Source: Candidatus Bathyarchaeota archaeon (GTDB lineage: Archaea; Thermoproteota; Bathyarchaeia; Bathyarchaeales; Bathycorpusculaceae). Taken from it: a stretch of DNA of 64,000 nt. The position numbers and the translations under genes are program-made. Shown in pieces: positions 1-21,079 of this stretch. Where the stretch lies: the NCBI GenBank assembly GCA_963770935.1, contig CAVYRJ010000008.1, forward strand, positions 128,001 to 192,000, in the 5' to 3' direction. Positions within the stretch are counted from its first letter, which is position 1. Every line of letters begins with the position of its first letter. The notes under the pieces are model-generated. The model did not search any database. It was given only the letters and a program-made list of their open reading frames with translations, and was not told the DNA's origin.

Positions 1-114
1 TGGTTCATTGTCAAGCATAACACCGTAATCGCACACAACCTGAGTTTTTTCTGACTTAATAGTTACTCCGATTCTGCCGACTTCTCTGGCTCCACCTAAA
101 AATCCAACTTGCAA
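1..114 (-). CDS. 5' part of metallo-beta-lactamase/beta-CASP family RNase (runs off the window)
   Basis: Not in the ORF track. Manual translation from TTG at 114 gives MQVGFLGGAREVGRIGVTIKSEKTQVVCDYGVML, matching the FLGGAxEVGR...DxG start of beta-CASP nucleases. Confidence 0.8.
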   Translation of the reverse strand, partial: MQVGFLGGAREVGRIGVTIKSEKTQVVCDYGVMLDNEP

Positions 115-167
115 TCAGGACAAACCCCATTTGTTGATGTTAACGATTAAAAATGGATTATGCTGTT

Positions 168-779
168 TTAAAAATGTATTGACCCTCGGTTCAAATGTGC
201 AGAAACAGAACCTTTCTTGATCGCCCTCAAAATCTCATCCAGATTCAAAGAAGCTTCAACTTTGTTATAGACGCTGAATAATTCTGAAACTTGATGTGCA
301 TCGCTTCCTGCGGTAGCGGGCAAACCCAAGTTCTTAGCCAACTCCTTCGCTTCATTGTTTGCTTCTTTGCTTGAGCCGCCGTTTAAGGCTTCGATGGCGT
401 CAATCTTATAGTTTCTGGCACGTTCACCCATACCGTACGTTCGAAAGGGATGAGCTACAATAGAAACGCCTCCGATAGATTTAGCGAAATCAACGACAAC
501 TTCAGGCGTCCATGGCTTAGGAGGCAACTCGTAAGTGCCTAAAACGACAATATCCCCCTGCTCAGTGCTGATTTCCACACCTGGAATCACCAAAACATCT
601 GGGTAAGTAGAAGCCAGCTCAACTGTTGCCCTGCAACCGCGTACACTGTCATGGTCGGTGACGGCAGCAACCTTGATGAAGCTGTGCGCGACAAGCATAT
701 CCACGAGGGTTTTTGGTTGAATTATAGAGTCTGCCGAATAAATCGTATGAATATGAAAGTCGGCAAATAGAGGCTCTAT
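168..779 (-). CDS. PHP-domain phosphoesterase
   Basis: Motifs TDHD, GVEIST, AHP and GSDAH. The N-terminal DFHIHT motif lies in frame upstream of the ORF-track start at 704, so the gene is extended to a probable ATA start at 779. Confidence 0.85.
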   Translation of the reverse strand: MEPLFADFHIHTIYSADSIIQPKTLVDMLVAHSFIKVAAVTDHDSVRGCRATVELASTYPDVLVIPGVEISTEQGDIVVLGTYELPPKPWTPEVVVDFAKSIGGVSIVAHPFRTYGMGERARNYKIDAIEALNGGSSKEANNEAKELAKNLGLPATAGSDAHQVSELFSVYNKVEASLNLDEILRAIKKGSVSAHLNRGSIHF

Positions 780-8977: not shown

Positions 8978-9778
8978 TTAAGCGCCTATAACAAGCCTAA
9001 CCAACAACCATACAAAATCCCCAAGCACCAAGGCGACAACCAAACCTAAAGTAACAAAAATCAACATAGGCAACCCAGGCGTTGCCCAAACATAACCGTC
9101 TATTTTGCCTTCTTCAATAGCTTTGGATAAGCGTTCAACGACTTCGTCCCGCCCCTCATCATGAGGCACAATAGTAAGCTTGCGTTTTATGTTAACATCT
9201 TTGTCGTCGATATCTTCCATGGGAAAAATATGCCACTTCTCTTTAACCTTAGATACACTCATCTTGTAACCAGTAATAAGTACGAGAAACTTTTTCCCAA
9301 TCGACTCAGATACAAGGGAGCCTTGAAACATTTTAGTTTTAGTTTTTTTGTGCCAGAAAACATTGCGCAGTATCATGTATATGCCGCTTGCTGCTGCGAA
9401 CAGTACAGCATTACCGAATATTGTTATTGGAAAAATGAATTGTGATGTCGGTGATACTGCCTCAGCTATAAGAGGTGTAAATAATGCTAAAGGAGCAAAG
9501 GGCAAGGCAAGTGCGATGCACATGAGAGCTTTCGAGTCGGCGCCGCCAAAACCGCCAGCATAGAATAGCAAAAGCGCAAGTCCCGCTGTAATACCGAAGC
9601 TTAAACCGTAGAAGGGCAACTGGGAAGGCTCAAACAAAAGTAATTCGGCCAACGAAAGGGCGAGCGCTATGGGCGCATAGATTACCCAGACGCGATTGCT
9701 GACTTCACGGGTTTTGTGGTCTCTCCATGAAGCGTATGCCAATATGCCTAGGGAAACCGAAATGCTTGCCCCTGACAA
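8978..9778 (-). CDS. prepilin/preflagellin peptidase (A24, PibD/FlaK-like)
   Basis: SWRD..TREVSN, GGFGGADSKAL and C-terminal WATPGLPML motifs; the start may lie 7 codons upstream (ATT at 9799). Confidence 0.92.
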   Translation of the reverse strand: MSGASISVSLGILAYASWRDHKTREVSNRVWVIYAPIALALSLAELLLFEPSQLPFYGLSFGITAGLALLLFYAGGFGGADSKALMCIALALPFAPLALFTPLIAEAVSPTSQFIFPITIFGNAVLFAAASGIYMILRNVFWHKKTKTKMFQGSLVSESIGKKFLVLITGYKMSVSKVKEKWHIFPMEDIDDKDVNIKRKLTIVPHDEGRDEVVERLSKAIEEGKIDGYVWATPGLPMLIFVTLGLVVALVLGDFVWLLVRLVIGA

Positions 9779-9903
9779 GATTATTTGAAGTGTTTGAATA
9801 GATGATGCCCCTTTGGTTGTTGTTGCTTAGCTTGTTAATGGTTTTGTGCTAATAAGATTTTGTTAGTACCGCATCTTGCAATTAACGTAATCATTTTGGC
9901 GCG

Positions 9904-12900
9904 TTAGCTTTTTGCAGTCACCGTTATCGTAGGTGGATATTCAGCCAGTATCCATAGTCCCATAGGAGTGGTTCCGTCGTACAAACCACACACAGGTGTT
10001 GTTCCGTCAAAGGTTGCCACAGCACCCTGCCAAGTAATATCGTAGGCAGATGTAAATTGAACCTGAGAAGAACTTACTGGCAACAATTCAATCAATCCAC
10101 TGCTGGCTTTTATGGCGCCCTTAGAAGTGCTTGAGGCGAAAGAATCAAAAGCGTAAAGCTTCTGGTTAGCAGTATCTGCAAACATTATTCCTGCGCCTTT
10201 TCCATTGTCCGAAATTAATTGGCTGAAGTGATGTGCTGTCCAACCTTCGCTATTAGTGTTAAGATATGTTCCTGTTCCATTCTGGAGGATTGGGGATCCA
10301 GCTAGGGTGCTATTTTCTGTTTGTATCTGCGACTGTGGGTCAAGTTTGTTGTTAGTCGTATTGGGCATAAGTCGGTGATGGTGCGTGCCTGAACTGAGTT
10401 GATAAACATTATTCTTGTCTGGTAGGTGTAGTAAGTTGCGTTTGCTGGGAGAGTTAGGACTATGTTTGCGTAGATGTTTGGACAATTGTGCGCTCCTCCA
10501 TCGTCTGCAGGAGGATTAGTCTTGCCCCATTCTGCTTCTTGCTGAACAATATCTCGGACAACGCCATGATGGATCACGTACGATAATCCTGCGCCGTAAG
10601 TGCTGGCTTCAGTGTTTATGCGCATGAAAGTCGCTGTACTTGAGGTGCTTGTTCCTGTTACTGTTGATTTAACATTGAAACCTGCCAGGAATTGTAAAGT
10701 AACTTTTCCGTTAGTTAGAGTTTGGGTGCCTGTATTGTCGTTTGTGAAGTATGTGTTGGTGAATGCGAGTGGCGTCTGGGTTGCTGTGTCAGCTCCTTCC
10801 CACCATACCGTGAAATCGGTAACTTTGCTGGTTAAGAGGAAAACAATCATTTGGCGGTTGCCAAAAACTGTAGAGTTACTGGTTAACCCCAATGGGATTT
10901 GGTAGTTGGAAGCCCAATCTTCAATTTGGAAAGGAACCTCTTGGTTTACGCCGTTTATGGTTTGGTTTAGGTGGATTGCTTTAACAGGGATTGGGGGAAT
11001 GGGCAAGGTTTGGGTGGTTAGTTGCATGTTTTGACCAAGCCAACGCATTGTACCATTTTGTAGAATTTCAACGGTGACAGTGGATTCTTGAAGGTTGAGG
11101 AGAAAGCTAATGTCTGGTTCATCTTTTAGGTAAACAGAGTCAATATTCCAAGTGTCTGGCGTACCGTCGTTTGCTTCGTTACTTCCTATAAATCGGATGG
11201 TAAGGCTTGAGGAGTCTATGAACGATGCAAGGGAAACATTGTTGAAGTAATTGGGAACGAGCGTCATTAGATTTGACCAAGAACCATCCTTGCAAAACCT
11301 GGACAATCAGGGGCTCGGATCCCATTGCACCTGTTTTGATGCATAAATCCTGACGAATGTTAGTGGCATTAACGGTTAGCCATTGCTCCTGAAGATTAAC
11401 TGCGTAATTGGTAACATTTGGACTGTATTGTATTAAGTCCAGGTGGAGGTCGAAGGGACTTGTAGTAGACTTGACAGCTGTAACCATAACTTTCCAGTAA
11501 CCACTGCTGTTCAGATAGCTAGTTGGGCTAGTCAAAATTATCTGGGGATTTGTTGTATCACTAGTTCCCAACGTTGTAGTCATGTATCCATCTCCGCTTG
11601 TGGGGTATTGGCTTGTTGCCGAGTTGAAAAGTTGGAAAGTCGCAGATACACCACTGGTAGAGGCGGAACTATCTGTTGTCCAAGCAAGTTCATTCCACGG
11701 GAAAGGTATGTTGGAATTGCCAGTAAACTCAACTTGTGCATTGTATTGGTTTGCTGGAGAGTAAGTGCAGTAAATGCTATATGTTCGCTGACTACCTTGG
11801 TCAGATACTGTTGTCGGCCAGTTAGGGTAAGTACCGCTTCCTTCGAATCTTTGTGCTGAACCAGTATCACGGTAGATGTTCGCATTTGTGTCAGAAGACC
11901 AAACCATTAGGACATAATCAGTTGCTGCGGCCAATACGGGTTGCGAAATAAAGTTGAAAGTAACCCAGTTATCCATTGTGCCTAACGTTTTCTCTTCTGT
12001 TGTTCCAATTAAGCTGCTTCCAGTACTTGAGTAAACAGCTGCCTTTGCTTTGAATAGACTGTTGTAATTGCAGTATATAGAATACTGATTGGTATTCGTC
12101 TGCGGAGTTAAAGAAGATGGCCAGACACCATAGATTTGGCTGGTAACGTAGCGACCGTTTCCGCCTGATGAGCTGCTGTATCGAAGGATTGAGGTGCCGC
12201 TTCCAGTCTGGGACCACACAACTAAGATGTAGTTTGTTGACTCTGTTAATACAGGTGCAGATGAGAAGATGAAAGTTCTCCATGCAGGATTACTGCTTGC
12301 GGGTACAGTTTGTTCGTTTGATGAAGCCAAAAGGTTACCGTTGTTGTCGTAAATGGCAGCTTTCATGTTTTTAGCGCTCGTCGTACAAGCTATGTATGCC
12401 GCGATGCTTTGTACTGAAACAGGGTAGTTTGGAGTTGTGATCTGCTGCCCTCGAATAGAGTCAATTATGGAATCACCGTTGTTACCTGTGTTGGTGTTTC
12501 CGAGAGTGTTGGTTGCGGAAGTAAAACGTAAGTATGCACTTATGTTTGTTGCTAGACCTGATTGGCTGAGTGTAAATCTTGAGCCTCTGATACTGCTTAG
12601 TGATGTTGTGGCCCCCCCTTTTATTGTATAACCGAAATTGGCTGAGCCGCTAAAAGAAGACCCGTAAGAGCGGAAACTCATGTAAGAACCATCGTTAGCT
12701 TGCAGGCTATTTGTGGATCCACTTGCTAATGTCGTTGAATTATAAGTTTTATGATTTGTAGGGTAGCTGGGTACGAATGTTGTTCCGGAAGCTGTTTCTG
12801 TTAAAGTGTCGTAGACACCGTCTGGTCCATATTGTTGGGCAGTGAAGTTACTGTGGGTTCCAACTTCGTCTAAGTTGTTGTCCACGTAATAGAATCCTGT

Positions 12901-13659
12901 TTGGAATGAACTGGAGTTCCATGTTAGTTTGGCGTTGAACTGAGAATAAGATGATGCAATAACCATAAGCCCGCGGGTATCTTCCACTTGGATTACATAT
13001 GAACTGCTGTTAACTCCCTGTGGAAGATCAAGCAAGTATGTTCCATCGGCGTATGAGGCAATATTGTCTGGTTCTACCAATTCCCAATCTGAATAATTAT
13101 AGACATAACGGTATAGCTTCAAGTTGTTTTTTCCCAAATTAATTAAAGGTTGGTCATTGTCCATTAGAATTTTTAGTTGGGCTTGACTGGTTTGGTTAGC
13201 TTTCGATATTTCTACGTCTAATCGGGTTGATGTTGAGTAACTTGCGCCAGAGATGCCTAATCCTTCCAAGTTATAGGTGACAGTCATATTGCCTTGGCTG
13301 TAGCTTTTGTTTGAAAACCATTGGTTGTTTAGGTCTAGGCTGGTTAAGTTGATATCTACACCCCATTCTGGTCTGATGTCGCATGCCTGGTCTAAGCCAC
13401 TTTGAAGGTAGTTTCTAGCTAATTCATTAGCGTATGGTTGGTTTCCGGTTACTTTGAGAATCGAACCATAATATCCAACGGTGAAACCTAAAATTTCCTT
13501 AAGCCCTAAGTTGGTTTCGTCTACTGCACTTAAGATCTGAGGCTGTTGTTCAATAGGGTTATAACGAATCGCCGAGAAAGTGGCAATAGCTGAACCGACT
13601 AAGACTATGGCAACCAGCAATGCAGCGATAATTGAAAACGCACCCTTGTTGTTCAACAT
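9904..13659 (-). CDS. giant (~1250 aa) pilin-like or adhesin protein; frameshifts near 11290 and 10338
   Basis: Class III-like signal MLNNKG/AFSIIAALLVAIVLV at ATG 13659. Three overlapping ORFs join with single-base shifts. Ser/Thr/Asn-rich with many NxS/T sequons. Confidence 0.75.
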
Positions 13660-13660
13660 G

Positions 13661-14981
13661 TTAGTTGCCTCCAGCCATGCCCAATTGCAAAACTGCAATT
13701 CGGCTGGTTCCTGTTGCGTTGTATTCTGAAGCATAGACTCTGGGGTGGTAGTATGAGAGGAGACTTAGTCCTGTGATTCGAATGTCGGGTGTTCTAGTTA
13801 ATCCTAAAGCCAAGAAAGAGCCTGTAATTGTGTTTGTACCATGAGTGTAAAAAGTTCCTGGATAATAGTTTGAGATTGGATTTAGCACGTTTACTCCAAT
13901 TGAAAGATGATAAGTTGAGAGTATGGTGTTGGATAGCGCTCTTGTGGATGTCTGAGACACTGAAGGGTAAATCCCGTAATAATTGCATGCCTCTATTGCA
14001 GTTTGGCTAAGCGTTGACTGTCTTGTTGCGCTGTCAGAAACGGCGGTACCAGTAGAACTATAGCTTTGGTTATCTAAGCCTCTAAGAAATGCTATTGATC
14101 CTCCTCCCCCAGTTTGCTGCATCCCATAAATACCCCAGCCGTTTTGTCCATTTACGAACGCAGCAGTGTTGCTTACGTAGTAAAAGGGGTAACCAACAAT
14201 GCTGGCCCAAGTCCAGTTATACATGTTGACTCTTTGACCTAGAGTAATAGCTGTAGTAGGCGTAAGAGTTCTGGGAGTACGGTGATTGACAGTAATCCGA
14301 AGGTATTGGTACAGCTTCGCCGCAGGTGTTTATGACAACGGCGTTTTGAAGGTTTTCTCCATTTATCGACATTCCGTTCAGTATCTTTGCAAACTGTGAA
14401 GTATTTTGCACCATTATTGTGTTAACAAAAAACGGCGATAGAAGGTTAGAGAGGTCTTGCGCGAATGTGTGTGCAGTGTAGCCAGTGATCCACCAGCCAT
14501 TTGAGTCGCTGCAGTTTAAGATGTAGAGGGTTCCTCCGTTTTCCTGACCGATTTTTTCAGGTGTGAAGTGGAATGTGACGTTGGAGGAAGCTACTGTATA
14601 TGTGGAGACGTCAGTGGTGACTCCTAAGTCTTCAGCGTTTGAGATACTTGCTTTTTGATTGTAAAGGTCGCCTCCTACGTTTGTTTCGAGTGAATCCCCT
14701 TGATTCACGTCATAAATGGTTAGATTATAAAGAATATTTGGCGGAAGGGAAGCTGAGATTGCTATTTGAAGGCTATGTAGAACTGAAGGATTATCAGTTT
14801 CGAATACGGCTGTGCCTAAATCATAGTTCGAATCAAGCATCTGCAATGTCGTAAAGGATAAGCGCCGCAGGTTTATGGGCGAAACCTCTCGTGGCGGCGG
14901 TAATACAGTGAAATAGGATGTGGCTATGATTGCGCTAGCGATGATTATTACAACGAAAACAACTTCTAATGTTCGAATCAT
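13661..14981 (-). CDS. minor pilin-like protein (~440 aa); frameshift near 14243
   Basis: N-terminus MIRTLEVVFVVIIIASAII. ORFs 14217-14981 and 13661-14224 join as YSYY-LGQRVNMYNWTW. Confidence 0.7.
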
Positions 14982-16199
14982 TTAACCAGCCCCCTGATTG
15001 CTTTTTAGATTCCAGAGTGCAAGTGTTACTCCATAGGCAAAACCGCCTATCGTCGTTTGGCGAATGTCAGTTGCGACCCACTCTTGTCCTGTTGGGTTGG
15101 CACCAAATGTTACTGGAAAAGCCATTGAGCTCAAACCCCATGGCATTAAAACTATTCCAACATTGCCAGAAGTATCTTTGTAGGTTACTATTAGTATTCC
15201 TTCGTTATCAGGAACATTTGTTGAGGCATATTCAGGTGAGGCGCCTCCAACCGAACCAGTTGAACCTAACGGTATTTGACGAAGCGTGTTTTCATGAGTT
15301 AAGATTGCAAAGGATGCATTATAGTTCAACTTTAAATACGGAGGCGATTGCACTGGTTCGCCAACGGAATCACCGTGAGCAATCAGTATGCTTCTTTCTT
15401 CGAAGCTCTCGACAAGTGGAATTAAGCTTTTGGTGACTGAATCTGGCACATGGACATAGGAGCCAATTCCCTTAAGACCATAAAGATGAGAGTATACGAT
15501 AAAGGCATAAGACTGGGTTTCACCATTAACACTTGGAAAAGTCACTTGAGCTAAGCCTGTTTCGTCGGTGCTTGTTGTGCCGCTTATTATTGTTGTGGAG
15601 GGATATTCGTTTTGGTCTTGGTTGACTAAAAGAAGATTGTAATTTACCGATGCATCGGCAAGTGGGGAACTTGTACCGTCTACGTTTACATTCAATGTTA
15701 AGGGTGCTCCGATAGAAACTTTTGAGGTTGTGATAGTCAAGAGGGGTGATAGTGTAAGTTGGAATCCGTAAGTTCCATTTATTCCTAGCAGCTTAGAGAC
15801 TGTTGAATAATTGAGAACCTTTGTAGATGGAGAAAGAAAGTAACTACCGAAGCCTGTCGTTATATTGCTGTAGTAGGAATTAGTTTTAGAGTAATAAACC
15901 TGTGATTCAGGGGCGGAATTCAGCCGCATAAGCGAGAATGTGCTAAGCTTGTATTGAGGAAACTCTGGATCTTGCAATCCGAAGCAATCGGGTATGCTGT
16001 CTTTTTTTCCCCAATCCACGGGTAATCCCGGATTTAGCACTATTGTGTCTAAGAGGTCACTGGTTTTAGTCGACAACACTCTATGACGCTCGTAGCCAAT
16101 TGCTGTTTGCATGTTTTGACCGAAAAGACTGATGAAAAGCAGTATTGCAGCTATAAACACAGTGAGCGAAATCACATGATCAACAGAGGCACTTGCCAT
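14982..16199 (-). CDS. minor pilin-like protein (405 aa)
   Basis: N-terminal MASASVDHVISLTVFIAAILLF hydrophobic helix; the stop abuts the next start. Confidence 0.7.
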   Translation of the reverse strand: MASASVDHVISLTVFIAAILLFISLFGQNMQTAIGYERHRVLSTKTSDLLDTIVLNPGLPVDWGKKDSIPDCFGLQDPEFPQYKLSTFSLMRLNSAPESQVYYSKTNSYYSNITTGFGSYFLSPSTKVLNYSTVSKLLGINGTYGFQLTLSPLLTITTSKVSIGAPLTLNVNVDGTSSPLADASVNYNLLLVNQDQNEYPSTTIISGTTSTDETGLAQVTFPSVNGETQSYAFIVYSHLYGLKGIGSYVHVPDSVTKSLIPLVESFEERSILIAHGDSVGEPVQSPPYLKLNYNASFAILTHENTLRQIPLGSTGSVGGASPEYASTNVPDNEGILIVTYKDTSGNVGIVLMPWGLSSMAFPVTFGANPTGQEWVATDIRQTTIGGFAYGVTLALWNLKSNQGAG

Positions 16200-16201
16200 T
16201 T

Positions 16202-16678
16202 TTAATTGGCGCCCCCTTCAAAGGAAAGATAAATAGAACCTGAGGACTCTGTTGCCGTAAGTGAAGTTACATCACTTCTAAAGACCGCGCCGTCCTGCCA
16301 AGCAGCATTGATCCCCAATGTTATAAGGCTGGATGCTTCACCGTTAGCGTCGATTAGTTTGAGAGTTATTTTCATTATTTTAGCAGATGAACTTGGGTTA
16401 CTGATGTCTTGCAAAGTGATGTTATAGAAGTGATTATCTATTGTAGGGGGCGTTTCAAGTTCAGCAGATAAATGATCATTTGGATTGGATGCTCGGTTCA
16501 TTGTGAAAAATAGTTGCTGTACGGTACTGCCCAAGTGTCCAGCTATCTCTTGAAGCTGAAGGCTTCGGTGTTCATCGACATAGATGTCCATGATTGCAGT
16601 TGCTGCATATGGAAAAAGAAAAATCTGGGCGATTAACACTGGAACCATAATCATGTATTCAATGGTTATGTGTGCCAT
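16202..16678 (-). CDS. pilin-like protein (158 aa)
   Basis: MAHITIEYMIMVPVLIAQIFLF resembles the archaeal pilin Q-x-T-x-E-Y start. Confidence 0.75.
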   Translation of the reverse strand: MAHITIEYMIMVPVLIAQIFLFPYAATAIMDIYVDEHRSLQLQEIAGHLGSTVQQLFFTMNRASNPNDHLSAELETPPTIDNHFYNITLQDISNPSSSAKIMKITLKLIDANGEASSLITLGINAAWQDGAVFRSDVTSLTATESSGSIYLSFEGGAN

Positions 16679-17543: not shown

Positions 17544-19250
17544 TTATCCTATTTTTACGAATTGCGGAATTACTTTGGCAGCGACAATTGAGATTACTAC
17601 CAGGATGGCTGCATGCTTGAAACCGGCGCCGATGGATTCTTCGCTAATTTTTCCTGCGACAATTCCAATTAGGAAACTGTTGAAGATAACAGATGACATG
17701 AAAACTATTGTCATCAAAGAGTTATTTGGCGCAATTGCAGGTTCTGCGCCTGGCACAGCTATTCCTGTGGTTAAACCCATCATCATAATAGTGGTTGCCA
17801 CCAGTAGAATCGAAGCTAAGTATGGCATGAACACGTAGGGCCGAACTGACATTTTCTTTTCTTTCTCAACTTCCTGCGTCAAATTGTTGAATCGGGCTAA
17901 CGACTCAATCATTGGAATTGTGCCGCCGCCTACGTCGATGGTTTCGACGAGTAGGAACATCACGATCTGCACCATCCAACTGCGTGTGCGACGGAGAAAA
18001 TCGGACATAACGTTTTTAATTGGTATGCCCCAGGAAATCTCGGAGCTAATTTTTCGAAGCTCTTTGGTGAAGGTTCCGTAATCTCTTTTTGACAGGCTTG
18101 TTATGCATTTTTCTGGGGATAATCCGGTTTTTCTTACTTCCGTTAGGTCTCGGAGGAAACTTGTTACTCCTTGCTCCATGCTGGATCTTGCTTTTGCTAA
18201 TCTCATGTAAACGATGGCCGGTGGGGCTGCAGAAATGAATAAGCCAACTGCTAATGCAACTGGTAAATCGACACCCCAAGCTATCAAGTTTGTGAAGATT
18301 GGAAGTTGTGTTGTTCCCATGAAGTTTGTGAGCAGTAGGAATACAACTATGGCTATTACGCTGGAGACGGCGAAGACTTTGTAGGGGCGCATGTCAACGA
18401 GTGGCGTTTTTGGCTGCATGCTGTGGGCTAAGTAGACAAAGAGCATGGAGAGCATTGGCGTGAAAATGTAAGTATAAAGAAGTATACCTGAGAACTGTGA
18501 TATGTCTGCGCTTACGTTGGCTCCGCCTTGTATGCCATTTACGGCGAAGAGTATGTAGAAGCACAGAGACATCATGACCATGACTATTATGAAGGTCTCA
18601 AGAAGCATTCCAAGACGTTCAGCAGCTGCTTTGACGCGTAGGGCGCGAGTTTTGAAAATGTCTTCTGCCTTGCGTTCAAGGAAGTGACCGATGTCACCGC
18701 CTATTATGACGGTTGAAGCGTATCCGCCAAGGAAATCTTTGAATATATCTAAAGGCGTCTTTTTTGAAGCATTATCCAGGGCTGTTAGTGGATCAACGCC
18801 GAAGATTTCTACGTCTTTTATTATGTCTCTTGCTTCTTTACTCATGGCGGGCATAAGGTTTACTTGGGTTAAGCGTTTGAAGCTGGTATAGGGAGCTATA
18901 CCTCCTGACGACATGACGCTGATGTAAGCCGCAGCGAAGGGCATTTCACGCTCTAAACTTGAGGATCTGTCGCTGGCGTTGTTCATAGGTATAACTATAA
19001 AGCCAGCCATAACGAAGAGGGGCAGGGGAACTAAGAGCAGAAGAGGAAGAAAACCGTACAGTAAAGCAATTACTCCTGAGATAACTGAAACAGGAACGGT
19101 CAACAAGGCAATGAAGAACATAAGCGAGACGTAGGTTTCAGGGAAAATTCTCACTCGTCCCTTTTCAAGGGAGACTTTAAATTGGGTAAATACTTTTCTT
19201 AAGAAATAAGGTGCGAATCGCCCGAAGAGGCGAAAGGAAAATGGCTTCAA
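17544..19250 (-). CDS. type II/IV secretion system F-family membrane platform (TadC/FlaJ-like)
   Basis: Two T2SS-F repeats (EREMPFAAAYISVMSSGG; FLRDLTEVRKTGLS) and multiple TM helices. Confidence 0.92.
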   Translation of the reverse strand: MKPFSFRLFGRFAPYFLRKVFTQFKVSLEKGRVRIFPETYVSLMFFIALLTVPVSVISGVIALLYGFLPLLLLVPLPLFVMAGFIVIPMNNASDRSSSLEREMPFAAAYISVMSSGGIAPYTSFKRLTQVNLMPAMSKEARDIIKDVEIFGVDPLTALDNASKKTPLDIFKDFLGGYASTVIIGGDIGHFLERKAEDIFKTRALRVKAAAERLGMLLETFIIVMVMMSLCFYILFAVNGIQGGANVSADISQFSGILLYTYIFTPMLSMLFVYLAHSMQPKTPLVDMRPYKVFAVSSVIAIVVFLLLTNFMGTTQLPIFTNLIAWGVDLPVALAVGLFISAAPPAIVYMRLAKARSSMEQGVTSFLRDLTEVRKTGLSPEKCITSLSKRDYGTFTKELRKISSEISWGIPIKNVMSDFLRRTRSWMVQIVMFLLVETIDVGGGTIPMIESLARFNNLTQEVEKEKKMSVRPYVFMPYLASILLVATTIMMMGLTTGIAVPGAEPAIAPNNSLMTIVFMSSVIFNSFLIGIVAGKISEESIGAGFKHAAILVVISIVAAKVIPQFVKIG

Positions 19251-19252
19251 AT

Positions 19253-21079
19253 TTATTTAGTAGCGGCAACTGGTTTAACCTCCTCTTTATCGACGATTTT
19301 GCGGTAGAATTCTTTTGGTCTGGCGTAGTATTCCGCGATTATGTTAGCTACTTCTTTGTAGCTTCGTATGTTGCTTTTGCGCATCCAACGCAATACTGCT
19401 GTTCTACGATGCAACTCTTCAACAAGTTGTTCACGTGTTATTCCAAGGCGCTCTGAGAAGTTGGTGAGTAGAAAACTGCTGCCCAGATCTACAGCTTGCT
19501 CATCTTTGATGGGGTCCCATTTGAAGGGGTTGACGTTCTTTTCGGAGTCAACGATTTCGTTGACTGAGAGGATTCGGCGGTATGCTTTCTTTTCGCCATT
19601 TTTAACCAGGTGAACACGTTGCACTGACATTATGATGTTCATGAGCGGAATGTATGCTGGTGAAATATCCATGGGTTTCTGGGTTAGACGCCTAATGGCT
19701 GACTGGACGTTTTCAGCGTGCATTGTGCACATGCCACCGTGGCCTGTAGCTAATGCTTGGAACAGAACGTATGCTTCTTGACCGCGGACTTCGCCTACAA
19801 TCATCAGGTCTGGGCGGTGTCTCATGCAGGTCTTGACTAGATCGAATAGTGCTACTTCACCTACATTGCTGCCGCCTAAACCATAGCTTTGCCGTGAAAT
19901 GAGTGAGACCCAGTTTTCGTGGGATAGGTTGAGTTCGGCGGTTTCTTCTATAGTCATGATTTTGCTACCGGGTTTGATGAGACAGCCTAAAGCGTTTAAC
20001 GCAGTAGTTTTTCCTGCAGCGGTTCCTCCAAGAACCATGACTGAGGCACGGTTTTCAAGGCAAACCCAAAGGTAAGCTGCCATTTCTTCTGTGAATGTTC
20101 CTATGTTGATGAGGTCAATTATTGAATATGGATCTTCTCGGAATTTTCTGATTGTAAAAGCTGTGCCAAAGGGCGTGATTTCTCTTCTGTAAGCTACAGC
20201 TAATCTGTGTTTTCCAGGTAGTGAAGCATCGACGATTGGGAAAGCGCTGCTAACATGTTTGCCTGACATGTGAACTAATTTTACTACAAGATTGTCAAGG
20301 TCCTCGTCGCTTTCAAATTGAAGGTTAGTTTCTATGCTTTCGAACCCACGATGCCAAATGTAAACAGGCTTGTTTACTCCGTCGCAGGATATGTCTTCTA
20401 TGTTGGGGTCACGCATTAACGGGTCAATTTTGCCAAAACCGACTAAGTCGCGTTCTGCATGATAGAGAATTTTGTACCACGAAACGTCAGGAAGCCAGCC
20501 CATGCTGATTCTGTATTTGTCGACAATTTTTTTGGCTTCTTCGGCAAAGAATTTTCGTGGATCGTTGATTTCTTCTTTGGGTGATTCGATTTCAGCGAGC
20601 AACATTGCGAGGATACGGTTGTATATTCCGCGTTCCATTGGGTCAAGCTGAAGTTCGTCTAGAATATACTTGTTTTCCCCTGTCTTGGGATCTTGAATTA
20701 CCACAACTTGGGCGAAGGGTTCATAGAGTGGATATTTATCAATAATCTTTACGTTTTTTGGCAATGATTTGGCTGCCGGATTTGTTTCAGGTTCGGCAGT
20801 TTTTTCTAAATTTTTGTTTTTTGATTTTAGATTAATTTTAATTTTTGGTAGTTTTATTTTAAAAACTGGCAGTTTTATCTTAATAGCTGGCAGTTTTAGC
20901 TTTTTTTGTTCTTTGGCGGGTTTGGGTTCAGTTGATTTGTGTGTGAGGGAGAACTTGGGTATTTTGATTGATTTTAGTTGTAGTTTTGCTCTGGTGTTTT
21001 GGATTTTTTCTTTGATTTTCTGTTTAAGGTTAAGTTTTGGCATCGTGGGTCGCTTGTTTTCTATTTTGCGATCCCACAC
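19253..21079 (-). CDS. type II/IV secretion ATPase (VirB11/FlaI family)
   Basis: Walker A GGTAAGKTT, IEETAEL, RHRPDLMIVGEVRG and TGHGGMCTMHA. The start may be the ATG at 21043. Confidence 0.95.
   Translation of the reverse strand: MWDRKIENKRPTMPKLNLKQKIKEKIQNTRAKLQLKSIKIPKFSLTHKSTEPKPAKEQKKLKLPAIKIKLPVFKIKLPKIKINLKSKNKNLEKTAEPETNPAAKSLPKNVKIIDKYPLYEPFAQVVVIQDPKTGENKYILDELQLDPMERGIYNRILAMLLAEIESPKEEINDPRKFFAEEAKKIVDKYRISMGWLPDVSWYKILYHAERDLVGFGKIDPLMRDPNIEDISCDGVNKPVYIWHRGFESIETNLQFESDEDLDNLVVKLVHMSGKHVSSAFPIVDASLPGKHRLAVAYRREITPFGTAFTIRKFREDPYSIIDLINIGTFTEEMAAYLWVCLENRASVMVLGGTAAGKTTALNALGCLIKPGSKIMTIEETAELNLSHENWVSLISRQSYGLGGSNVGEVALFDLVKTCMRHRPDLMIVGEVRGQEAYVLFQALATGHGGMCTMHAENVQSAIRRLTQKPMDISPAYIPLMNIIMSVQRVHLVKNGEKKAYRRILSVNEIVDSEKNVNPFKWDPIKDEQAVDLGSSFLLTNFSERLGITREQLVEELHRRTAVLRWMRKSNIRSYKEVANIIAEYYARPKEFYRKIVDKEEVKPVAATK
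20831..20893 (-). repeat. three degenerate 21-bp tandem units encoding LPAIKIK-LPVFKIK-LPKIKIN
   Basis: Units on the + strand: attaattttaatttttggtag / ttttattttaaaaactggcag / ttttatcttaatagctggcag. Confidence 0.75.

Follow-up and report, generated by a model that had tools for sequence, protein, structure and literature searches.

Nested beta-sandwich domains in a giant pilin-like protein of a bathyarchaeon and its relatives: a probable case of recursive domain insertion

Domain insertion is common among proteins; deep homotypic nesting is rare. In the split PH domain of myosin X, PH2 is inserted in PH1, so that a domain lies in a loop of a homologous domain; it is a cytoplasmic protein of eukaryotes with a single level of nesting. 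The Si3 insert of the cyanobacterial RNA polymerase beta' subunit carries hybrid-motif domains nested recursively, up to six deep, and this six-level nesting serves as the illustrative extreme in a survey of domain insertion (PMC13114784). The available text of a second paper does not describe how the Si3 domains nest (PMC10895346). In RrgA, the tip adhesin of the pneumococcal sortase pilus, D3 is inserted in D2 and D2/D3 in D1, and D2 is a sandwich of two distant halves that reassembles even as separate chains (PMC5333627). Bacterial modular type IV pilins, such as PilB of Streptococcus sanguinis with its grafted vWA module, show that a pilin N-terminus can carry a bulky adhesive module (10.1101/2021.01.27.428410). 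Here, we analyzed a window of 64,000 nucleotides from Candidatus Bathyarchaeota archaeon (assembly GCA_963770935.1, contig CAVYRJ010000008.1, positions 128,001 to 192,000), in which a giant pilin-like gene lies on the minus strand. The encoded protein very probably has a nested architecture, in the order scaffold[ shell 3[ shell 2[ module A[ module B ] ] ] ], where module B is housed in a loop of its own homologue. Literature searches, which did not cover supplementary files, found no description of this archaeal pilin family.

The gene extends from 13659 to 9907 on the minus strand (window positions are used throughout) and encodes about 1250 amino acids (aa) if read through. From the ATG at 13659 (MLNNKGAFSIIAALLVAIVL...) it stays in one frame as far as about 11287, switches to a second that lasts until about 10338 and ends in a third, at the stop codon at 9904-9906. 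Alignment to the intact homologue P0006 (1243 aa), which also served to place the breaks, showed the three frame pieces to be colinear parts of a single protein of about 1250 aa. Residues of the nest are numbered in P0001, the 851-aa frame at 13734..11179 on the minus strand, and "model" refers to the predicted structure described below, whose residue numbers are those of P0001 minus 261. HMM denotes hidden Markov model and CBM carbohydrate-binding module. The parts are:

9907..13659, minus strand: whole giant pilin-like gene; N-terminus MLNNKG followed by AFSIIAALLVAIVL; frame broken at about 11287 and at about 10341-10330
12907..13659, minus strand: N-terminal scaffold with a class III-type signal and a hydrophobic helix, as read from the sequence
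12784..12906, minus strand: shell 3 N-piece, P0001 277-317; HMM match 'a', 71 bits
12637..12783, minus strand: shell 2 N-piece, P0001 318-366; HMM match 'b'; part of a split CBM-like sandwich, model 57..513
12505..12636, minus strand: N-half of the outer DUF4082-like module A, P0001 367-410; model range 101..401
12046..12504, minus strand: inner DUF4082-like module B, complete and contiguous, tip of the nest, P0001 411-563; model 146..299
11737..12045, minus strand: C-half of the outer DUF4082-like module A, P0001 564-666
11416..11736, minus strand: shell 2 C-piece, P0001 667-773; HMM match 'B', 165 bits, and structural matches
11088..11415, minus strand: shell 3 C-piece, split by the extra base at 11287 into P0001 774-816 and then P0002 8-73
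9907..11087, minus strand: C-terminal scaffold, from ESTVTVEILQNG onward, by homologue alignment and the model of P0107

An earlier note on this DNA had claimed that two homologous modules stand in the order N-N-C-C, and we located N-half A, module B and C-half A in P0001 where that note had placed them. The likeness of the two C-halves (P0001 458-563 and 564-666) was clear, with an alignment score of 167 against 33.5 +/- 6.7 for shuffled sequences (z=20; none of 500 shuffles as high). When profiles of 37 aligned homologues were compared with hhalign, the C-halves matched each other with a probability of 99.9% (E 2.9e-35) and the N-halves with 97.8% (E 1e-12, 42 columns), while all 16 control pairs of an N- with a C-half stayed at E >= 0.025. 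The order was also present in contigs of other sequencing runs. Contigs of four other public runs (X1-X4), 90-99% like the window, were aligned on 9900-13700; no run spans every part, and X1 lacks coverage of 9900-11169. Among the short-read contigs of X1, record 6 (12112-12834) spans the N-N and N-C junctions and record 5 (11932-12130) spans the C-C junction.

We then folded residues 262-816 of P0001 with AlphaFold2, using an alignment of 37 sequences, all of them two-module proteins; the other classes were left out because ambiguous alignment of single modules could bias the pairing. The mean predicted local distance difference test score (pLDDT) was 84.4, with values above 90 over about 57 to 515 and below 50 at the ends, which are the shell 3 pieces, whose partner lies beyond the frame break. 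Single-domain PDB chains superposed on module B as one contiguous range, 146..299 (154 residues, 133-150 aligned; this range leaves out alignments of Douge phage chains that run on to 325 or 513), and the best match was the Cwp84 lectin-like domain 4ci7_A (Z 14.9, root-mean-square deviation (rmsd) 2.3). For module A, the N-terminal sandwiches of the esterases 9kr1, 9kr0, 9kqz and 7toj aligned on 101..401 or 101..399 with 140-143 residues (Z 10.2-10.5, rmsd 2.9-3.0). This number corresponds to both halves of the outer module taken together (44 + 103), with the 153-residue inner module passed over. Close relatives of these chains, 7toh_A and 7tog_A, aligned to the inner module (Z 9.2-9.8), as did 9kqz_A itself in a wide search (145..299, Z 9.8). 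The proposal that B sits inside A is thus borne out by the model, in which B is one compact fold and the two separated halves of A superpose on single domains.

The linear order N-N-C-C alone would equally fit half-domains that had been duplicated separately, so that N1 packs against C1 and N2 against C2, or N- and C-pieces that form separate arrays; two separate half-duplications are conceivable, since one tandem duplication cannot turn N-C into N-N-C-C. However, the second N and the first C form the compact domain 146..299, of whose 154 residues 138-150 align to single-domain folds, and the first N and the last C align jointly to single domains (140-143 residues, rmsd 2.9-3.0). The aligned ranges of the inner module, the outer module and shell 2 therefore exclude interleaved pairing in the model. 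Moreover, the numbers of N- and C-halves are equal in 95/95 complete proteins, and the first N is tied to the last C by orthology. Interleaved pairing is thus highly improbable, and nesting is strongly favored as the architecture of this protein. Because modules A and B are homologous, B then represents a domain inserted into a copy of itself, and the N-N-C-C order would have arisen by insertion of a copy or by two half-duplications.

Two further split shells around the modules had been suggested in the earlier note, partly by analogy with similar archaeal surface modules. For shell 2 (YPTN..SFRSY with QVEFTG..DLIQY; 318-366 + 667-773), single domains of the families CBM4, 16, 22, 29, 32, 61 and others aligned across both pieces, on 49-65..510-515 with 116-148 residues (Z 9-14.2). 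The jelly-roll matches to the CBM families had Z 9-11 and rmsd 2.8-3.7 over 116-135 residues, with an identity of 5-12%, and represent a common fold at a middling Z. A phage chain, 9euf_H, covered 143 residues of the split shell 2 (58..514) and 144 residues of the contiguous shell 2 of the homologue P0107 (294..452), with Z 12.6 in both, and in P0107 and P0113 the two pieces are joined. For shell 3 (VDNN..DTLTE with NYAVNL..WNIDSVYL), we folded the two pieces of P0107 as separate chains. The interaction prediction score from aligned errors (ipSAE) was 0.65, while the best of three controls reached 0.01. A mark of 0.65 was reached by 58/80 solved complexes and 2/110 mismatched pairs, counts that are only rough because our own alignment was used. 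The runs agreed in at least 92% of contacts, the partner had a pLDDT of at least 74, and the closest contacts lay strand against strand (284 with 540, 286 with 538, 257 with 544). In P0125 the shell 3 pieces are directly joined. Both proposed pairings are supported. No sequence homology of shells 2 and 3 to the modules was detected: hhalign gave E > 0.01 for the split pieces and E 0.079-0.54 for the contiguous shell forms, the latter resting on only two (shell 2) and one (shell 3) contiguous examples. By sequence, therefore, homology between modules and shells is undetected, although it may exist all the same.

The scaffold that holds the nest was examined in the model of P0107 (941 residues, pLDDT 85.7). 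After the signal, the N-terminal scaffold consists of helices, a long beta-sheet and an Ig-like sandwich and ends in KLTWNSSS, as judged from the secondary structure of this model. The last approximately 260 residues of the C-terminal scaffold form a galactose-mutarotase-like beta-supersandwich, and this domain filled the list of structural matches. Over P0107 ~670-935, it aligned with 190-235 residues (Z 12-16) to GH38, rhamnogalacturonan lyase, aldose epimerases and YidC P1; a Z of 18.9 to 5xq3_B is a multi-domain alignment and not domain-sized. The shared supersandwich fold shows no function.

A Foldseek search with the whole nest model returned only multi-sandwich matches, with query-normalised TM-scores of 0.09-0.22, and pointed to phage baseplate proteins. 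The best multi-domain matches were the tripod protein of Staphylococcus phage 812 and the central fibre gp20 of mycobacteriophage Douge (9euj_G, 9eui_Q, 9euf_0, 8zdp_v), with a Foldseek probability of 1.00 over 440-456 columns and, by the structural aligner VIA, 251-252 residues across several domains (9euj_G, 8zdp_v). In the phage 812 tripod, CBM16/61-like sandwiches occur together with a Cwp84-like lectin domain, which are the fold types of shell 2 and of the modules, and the available part of the source does not state whether the tripod domains are nested (PMC13433997). These proteins differ from the archaeal one in that they are receptor-binding parts and not a pilin, with identities of 7-12% and multi-domain rmsd of 9.9-20.6.

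We further studied whether relatives lack inner layers. A word-seeded search found 154 relatives, of which 120 were examined; they fall into length classes of about 1090, 1240 and 1390 aa. With P0107 as the query, a full HMMER search gave 804 relatives at E <= 1e-3, and we examined the best 150 of them. With half-module HMMs, 95 of the 120 proteins had complete sets, which read N-C in 39, N-N-C-C in 38 and N-N-N-C-C-C in 18; the fragment P0091 reads N-N-N-C-C-N-C. Mean identities place the module of single-module proteins (k=1) closest to N1 and the final C of the k=2 and k=3 classes. N2 of k=2 pairs with N2 of k=3 and C1 of k=2 with C2 of k=3, which leaves N3 and C1 as the sole new pieces of k=3. 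At each step, then, a single contiguous N-C block is gained or lost, always at the innermost junction, which is what nesting predicts, whereas end-to-end duplication predicts otherwise.

The lengths of the homologues rise in steps accordingly: about 640 aa for the core only, 785 with shell 3, 941 with shell 2, then 1090, 1240 and 1390 with one, two and three modules. In P0107 (941 aa) and P0113 (939 aa), nothing stands between the joined shell 2 pieces, and in P0125 (785 aa) shell 2 is exactly absent and shell 3 contiguous. In 36 family representatives LTWNSSS and ESTVTVEILQNG, the flanks between which the whole nest was said to be inserted, are adjacent (gap <= 42 residues), and six representatives carry other inserts of 329-715 residues at the shell 3 site. 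Variants without inner layers and with contiguous host halves, which the earlier note had hoped to find, were therefore available for every level: the module in 39 proteins, shell 2 in P0107 and P0113, shell 3 in P0125 and the scaffold in 36.

To describe these architectures as strings, six HMMs were used (a/A for shell 3, b/B for shell 2, m/M for the module; lower case for N-pieces and capitals for C-pieces), the shell HMMs being built only from columns occupied in P0107. Among 264 proteins, 190 had hits; 139/190 strings were perfectly nested, and 0/190 need crossing. The nested strings include 39 abmMBA, 35 abmmMMBA and 17 abmmmMMMBA, as well as the single cases aaaaaaAAAAAA and babmmmMMMBAB (P0041). 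The deepest single-type nest seen was that of P0219 (2025 aa), in which, over residues 867-1869, six N-pieces of the shell 3 type precede, and six C-pieces follow, a centre of 136 residues; P0228 has five N- and four C-pieces of the shell 2 type. We also collected the 80 best related genomic loci at species level, all from metagenome-assembled genomes (MAGs) named as Bathyarchaeia, Bathyarchaeota, Thermoproteota or an unnamed archaeon. Their strings were abBA in 22, aA in 22, abmMBA in 20, abmmMMBA in 10, abmmmMMMBA in 4 and partial in 2.

The shell 2 loop of other relatives holds unrelated inserts of about 170 or about 215-230 residues, and a Pfam scan of such alternative inserts (P0103, P0114, P0117 and others) named no family. 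P0127 (1390 aa) has an insert at the shell 2 site that does not match the module HMM. P0131 (1525 aa) was considered as a four-module protein and rejected, as its 605-residue insert at the shell 2 site has no module HMM match. In P0139, P0151, P0156, P0162 and P0147, inserts of about 140-160 residues lie in loops of the C-terminal supersandwich, near P0107 692, 746 and 793-801, indicating that the family has more than three sockets. Proteins P0153, P0158, P0161, P0163 and P0170 (1884-2140 aa) combine an uninterrupted scaffold of about 640 aa with a C-terminal extension of 1200-1500 residues. Finally, P0081 (744 aa) and P0084 carry an N-N-C-C module pair after PKD domains, in a different pilin-like protein without shells 2 and 3.

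Several observations weigh against nesting as described here. The pairing was derived from first-to-last aligned ranges and aligned lengths given by VIA and not from a contact map, and the models are predictions, the nest model resting on 37 sequences, all two-module. In single sequences the likeness of the N-halves is weak (367-410 against 411-457: score 35, shuffled 21.4 +/- 4.4, z=3, 7/500 as high). The preference of the k=1 module for the outer module over the others is small (0.43 versus 0.39 for C, 0.40 versus 0.34 for N). Among the 190 strings, a closing half is in excess in 34, an opening half stays unclosed in 11, and 6 contain a mismatch; such imperfect strings would fit truncated proteins or missed short N-halves. 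In four strings (P0091, P0176, P0245, P0252) a closing half is followed by an opening half, showing that tandem units do occur inside a shell. The assignment of the modules to DUF4082 also has a weak side, in that P0001 has no DUF4082 match in Pfam at E <= 1 and the name comes from 3/8 scanned homologues.

These three homologues passed the Pfam cut-off of 28.4 bits for DUF4082 (PF13313), namely P0053 (45.4), P0030 (29.3) and P0091 (38.5). The matches span the innermost N- and C-halves contiguously, with P0091 445-570 aligned to profile positions 11-135 and P0030 401-493 to 20-107, and on a C-half alone the match begins at about profile position 41. The window modules are DUF4082-like by transitive homology, because the passing homologues are linked to them via the family HMMs. 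Pfam describes DUF4082 as a contiguous domain, whereas here it is split and nested; literature searches found no split or nested DUF4082.

To ask how labile the tip is, a tree was built from the scaffold only (FastTree, 84 rows), and tip states were scored as none, 1, 2 or 3 modules, or other. The tip state needs 34 changes on this tree, where the least possible is 4 and the shuffled mean 45.1; recombination within the scaffold could inflate the count of 34. Sister scaffolds a few percent apart differ in tip state, as in the pair P0006 (k=2) and P0047 (k=1), with end branches of 0.024 and 0.066. Since the same three loops take nothing, other domains or nested copies, both depth and innermost domain differ between close relatives. 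The giant pilin gene is present as one copy only in the 1.98-Mb genome, so that depth variation does not arise here among paralogues of a single genome. That length and tip vary is shown by the series of homologues together with the scaffold tree.

The archaeal nest resembles Si3 in that homotypic small beta domains are inserted in one another and depth differs between lineages (PMC13114784). It differs from Si3, a cytoplasmic enzyme insert with the hybrid-motif fold, in being part of a surface protein and in taking alternative inner domains at the same loops. Moreover, Si3 expanded between large clades (PMC13114784), whereas the archaeal depth changes between scaffolds a few percent apart. 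RrgA belongs to a bacterial sortase pilus and not to a type IV pilus, nests unlike folds, has its depth fixed at two and is locked by isopeptide bonds (PMC5333627), which were not looked for in the archaeal protein. In the bacterial PilB of S. sanguinis, the module is appended to the pilin, and the available text mentions no nesting (10.1101/2021.01.27.428410). Recursive insertion is therefore already known from Si3 and RrgA, and the archaeal pilin case is new, unusually regular, deep and labile.

We tentatively propose that the family is a natural and still active system of recursive insertion, although we hold this with less than even confidence. Each beta-sandwich of about 150 residues is interrupted about 43 residues from its start, with the next domain in that loop, and under this proposal the loop would act as a universal socket. 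Modules, including copies of the host, would be gained, lost or swapped there, giving a length-adjustable, doubly tethered stalk with exchangeable tips. On the likelier reading of the protein as a pilus subunit, set out below, the nest would hold the innermost lectin-like or carbohydrate-binding module away from the scaffold or filament. Its layers would be joined by two chain crossings each, and a pull on the tip would be shared by two tethers. Gain, loss or swap of an inner block would change both reach and specificity. If the family is such an active system, depth and tip would be the organism's tuning of what its pili grasp and at what reach, and the outer domains could fold only after an inner chain of up to about 1000 residues. 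Among natural relatives, one scaffold occurs with every number of layers from 0 to 5, and P0219 has six of a single type. This series makes it testable how discontinuous domains fold with halves hundreds of residues apart, how insertion sites remain permissive, and whether two-tether nesting confers mechanics absent from tandem arrays. For protein engineering it provides a natural socket within a small sandwich domain, and in the Bathyarchaeia, sediment archaea that are abundant and uncultured, it hints at a variable binding device carried on pili.

The reading frame of the window gene is broken. The earlier note had counted two frameshifts; there are indeed two frame changes, but they come from three extra single bases relative to the related contigs:

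11287..11287, minus strand: extra base; left out in 2/2 runs covering the site (X2, X3), after which the frame reads QGGSW as in the family
10330..10341, minus strand: two extra bases, 10341 and 10330, 11 bases apart; left out in 2/2 covering runs (X3, X4), after which the frame reads TTNLPTVQIQTEN as in the family

One X1 contig joins across 11254-11321, skipping 66 bases (22 codons) at the first break, with only 22 letters on the shorter side, which makes the join weak. The gene directly upstream (13661-14981, minus strand) is likewise split, its frames of 254 aa and 187 aa overlapping at about 14217-14224, whereas the two parts share a single frame, 60-95 bases apart, in 9/9 related loci listed; the split is probably a further indel in the assembly. 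Other long-contig MAGs of Bathyarchaeota (L010, L014, L015) also show frame changes, in the prepilin peptidase or in the 405-aa gene, which suggests that indel errors are common in this assembly set. Given the extra bases missing from the covering runs, the split upstream gene and the similar frame changes in other MAGs, we consider the breaks to be assembly errors with reasonable, though limited, confidence. Counting against this interpretation, the contigs without the extra bases are up to 10% divergent from the window and are not proof of an intact gene in the strain. RNA runs X19-X21 contain 0.05-0.06 of the words.

Alternatively, the gene might be a dead pseudogene here, its architecture a relic in this organism and real in the relatives, of which close ones carry an intact gene. 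None of the three extra bases lies inside a long homopolymer run, the gene is the sole copy in the genome, and the X1 contig omits 11254-11321, all of which would suit a decaying gene. On the other hand, the three frames are long, with no stop codons or other decay, and keep about 70% identity to intact homologues over the full length. The neighbor split here yet whole in relatives, together with the similar changes in L010, L014 and L015, fits assembly indel errors, and the extra bases are absent in 2/2 covering runs at each site. We therefore regard a pseudogene as unlikely and assembly error as the better explanation of the breaks.

The neighborhood of the gene on the minus strand is that of a pilus locus:

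8978..9778, minus strand: archaeal prepilin peptidase (Pfam Peptidase_A24 + Arc_PepC_II), directly downstream; in 73/80 related loci
13661..16678, minus strand: three upstream genes with hydrophobic N-termini (158 aa, 405 aa and 254+187 aa); kept in 68-77/80 loci
17544..19250, minus strand: T2SSF platform protein, in the pilus motor block 17544..21079
19253..21079, minus strand: T2SSE ATPase with a PilB3_C domain, in the same pilus motor block

The block is thus ordered T2SSE ATPase, T2SSF, three genes with hydrophobic N-termini, giant pilin gene and A24 peptidase, and this order recurs in 68-77/80 related loci. The protein itself begins with MLNNKG and then AFSIIAALLVAIVLVGSAIATF, a short, polar leader with KG at its end and a hydrophobic helix after it; the end of MLNNKG is a putative class III signal cleavage site. 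The protein is most likely a minor or tip subunit of the pilus built by the neighboring ATPase, platform protein and peptidase; it would be processed by the adjacent prepilin peptidase and would sit in or on the pilus. Glycans are the putative ligands to judge from the folds, namely the CBM-like shells, the Cwp84-like lectin tip and the mutarotase-like supersandwich, and for a role as a pilus-tip adhesin we see about even chances.

The pilin-type signal might instead be merely borrowed by a glycan-binding or S-layer-associated protein that is membrane-anchored or secreted and stands outside the pilus. Pfam Pilin_N (PF07790) has no match in P0001 and only a weak one in the relative P0081 (E 0.021, 16.1 bits against a cut-off of 25.2). 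With about 1250 aa the protein seems far too large for a major pilin, and the supersandwich and the CBM-like shells are similar to accessory domains found in glycoside hydrolases and lyases. Set against this are the leader and helix at the N-terminus and the conservation of the gene order with the ATPase, the platform protein, the three small proteins with hydrophobic N-termini and the peptidase. We accordingly judge a location outside the pilus to be rather improbable and favor a pilus subunit.

Elsewhere in the window, the segment 44001-46000 has an AT skew of +0.42 and a GC skew of -0.24, far from the rest of the window.

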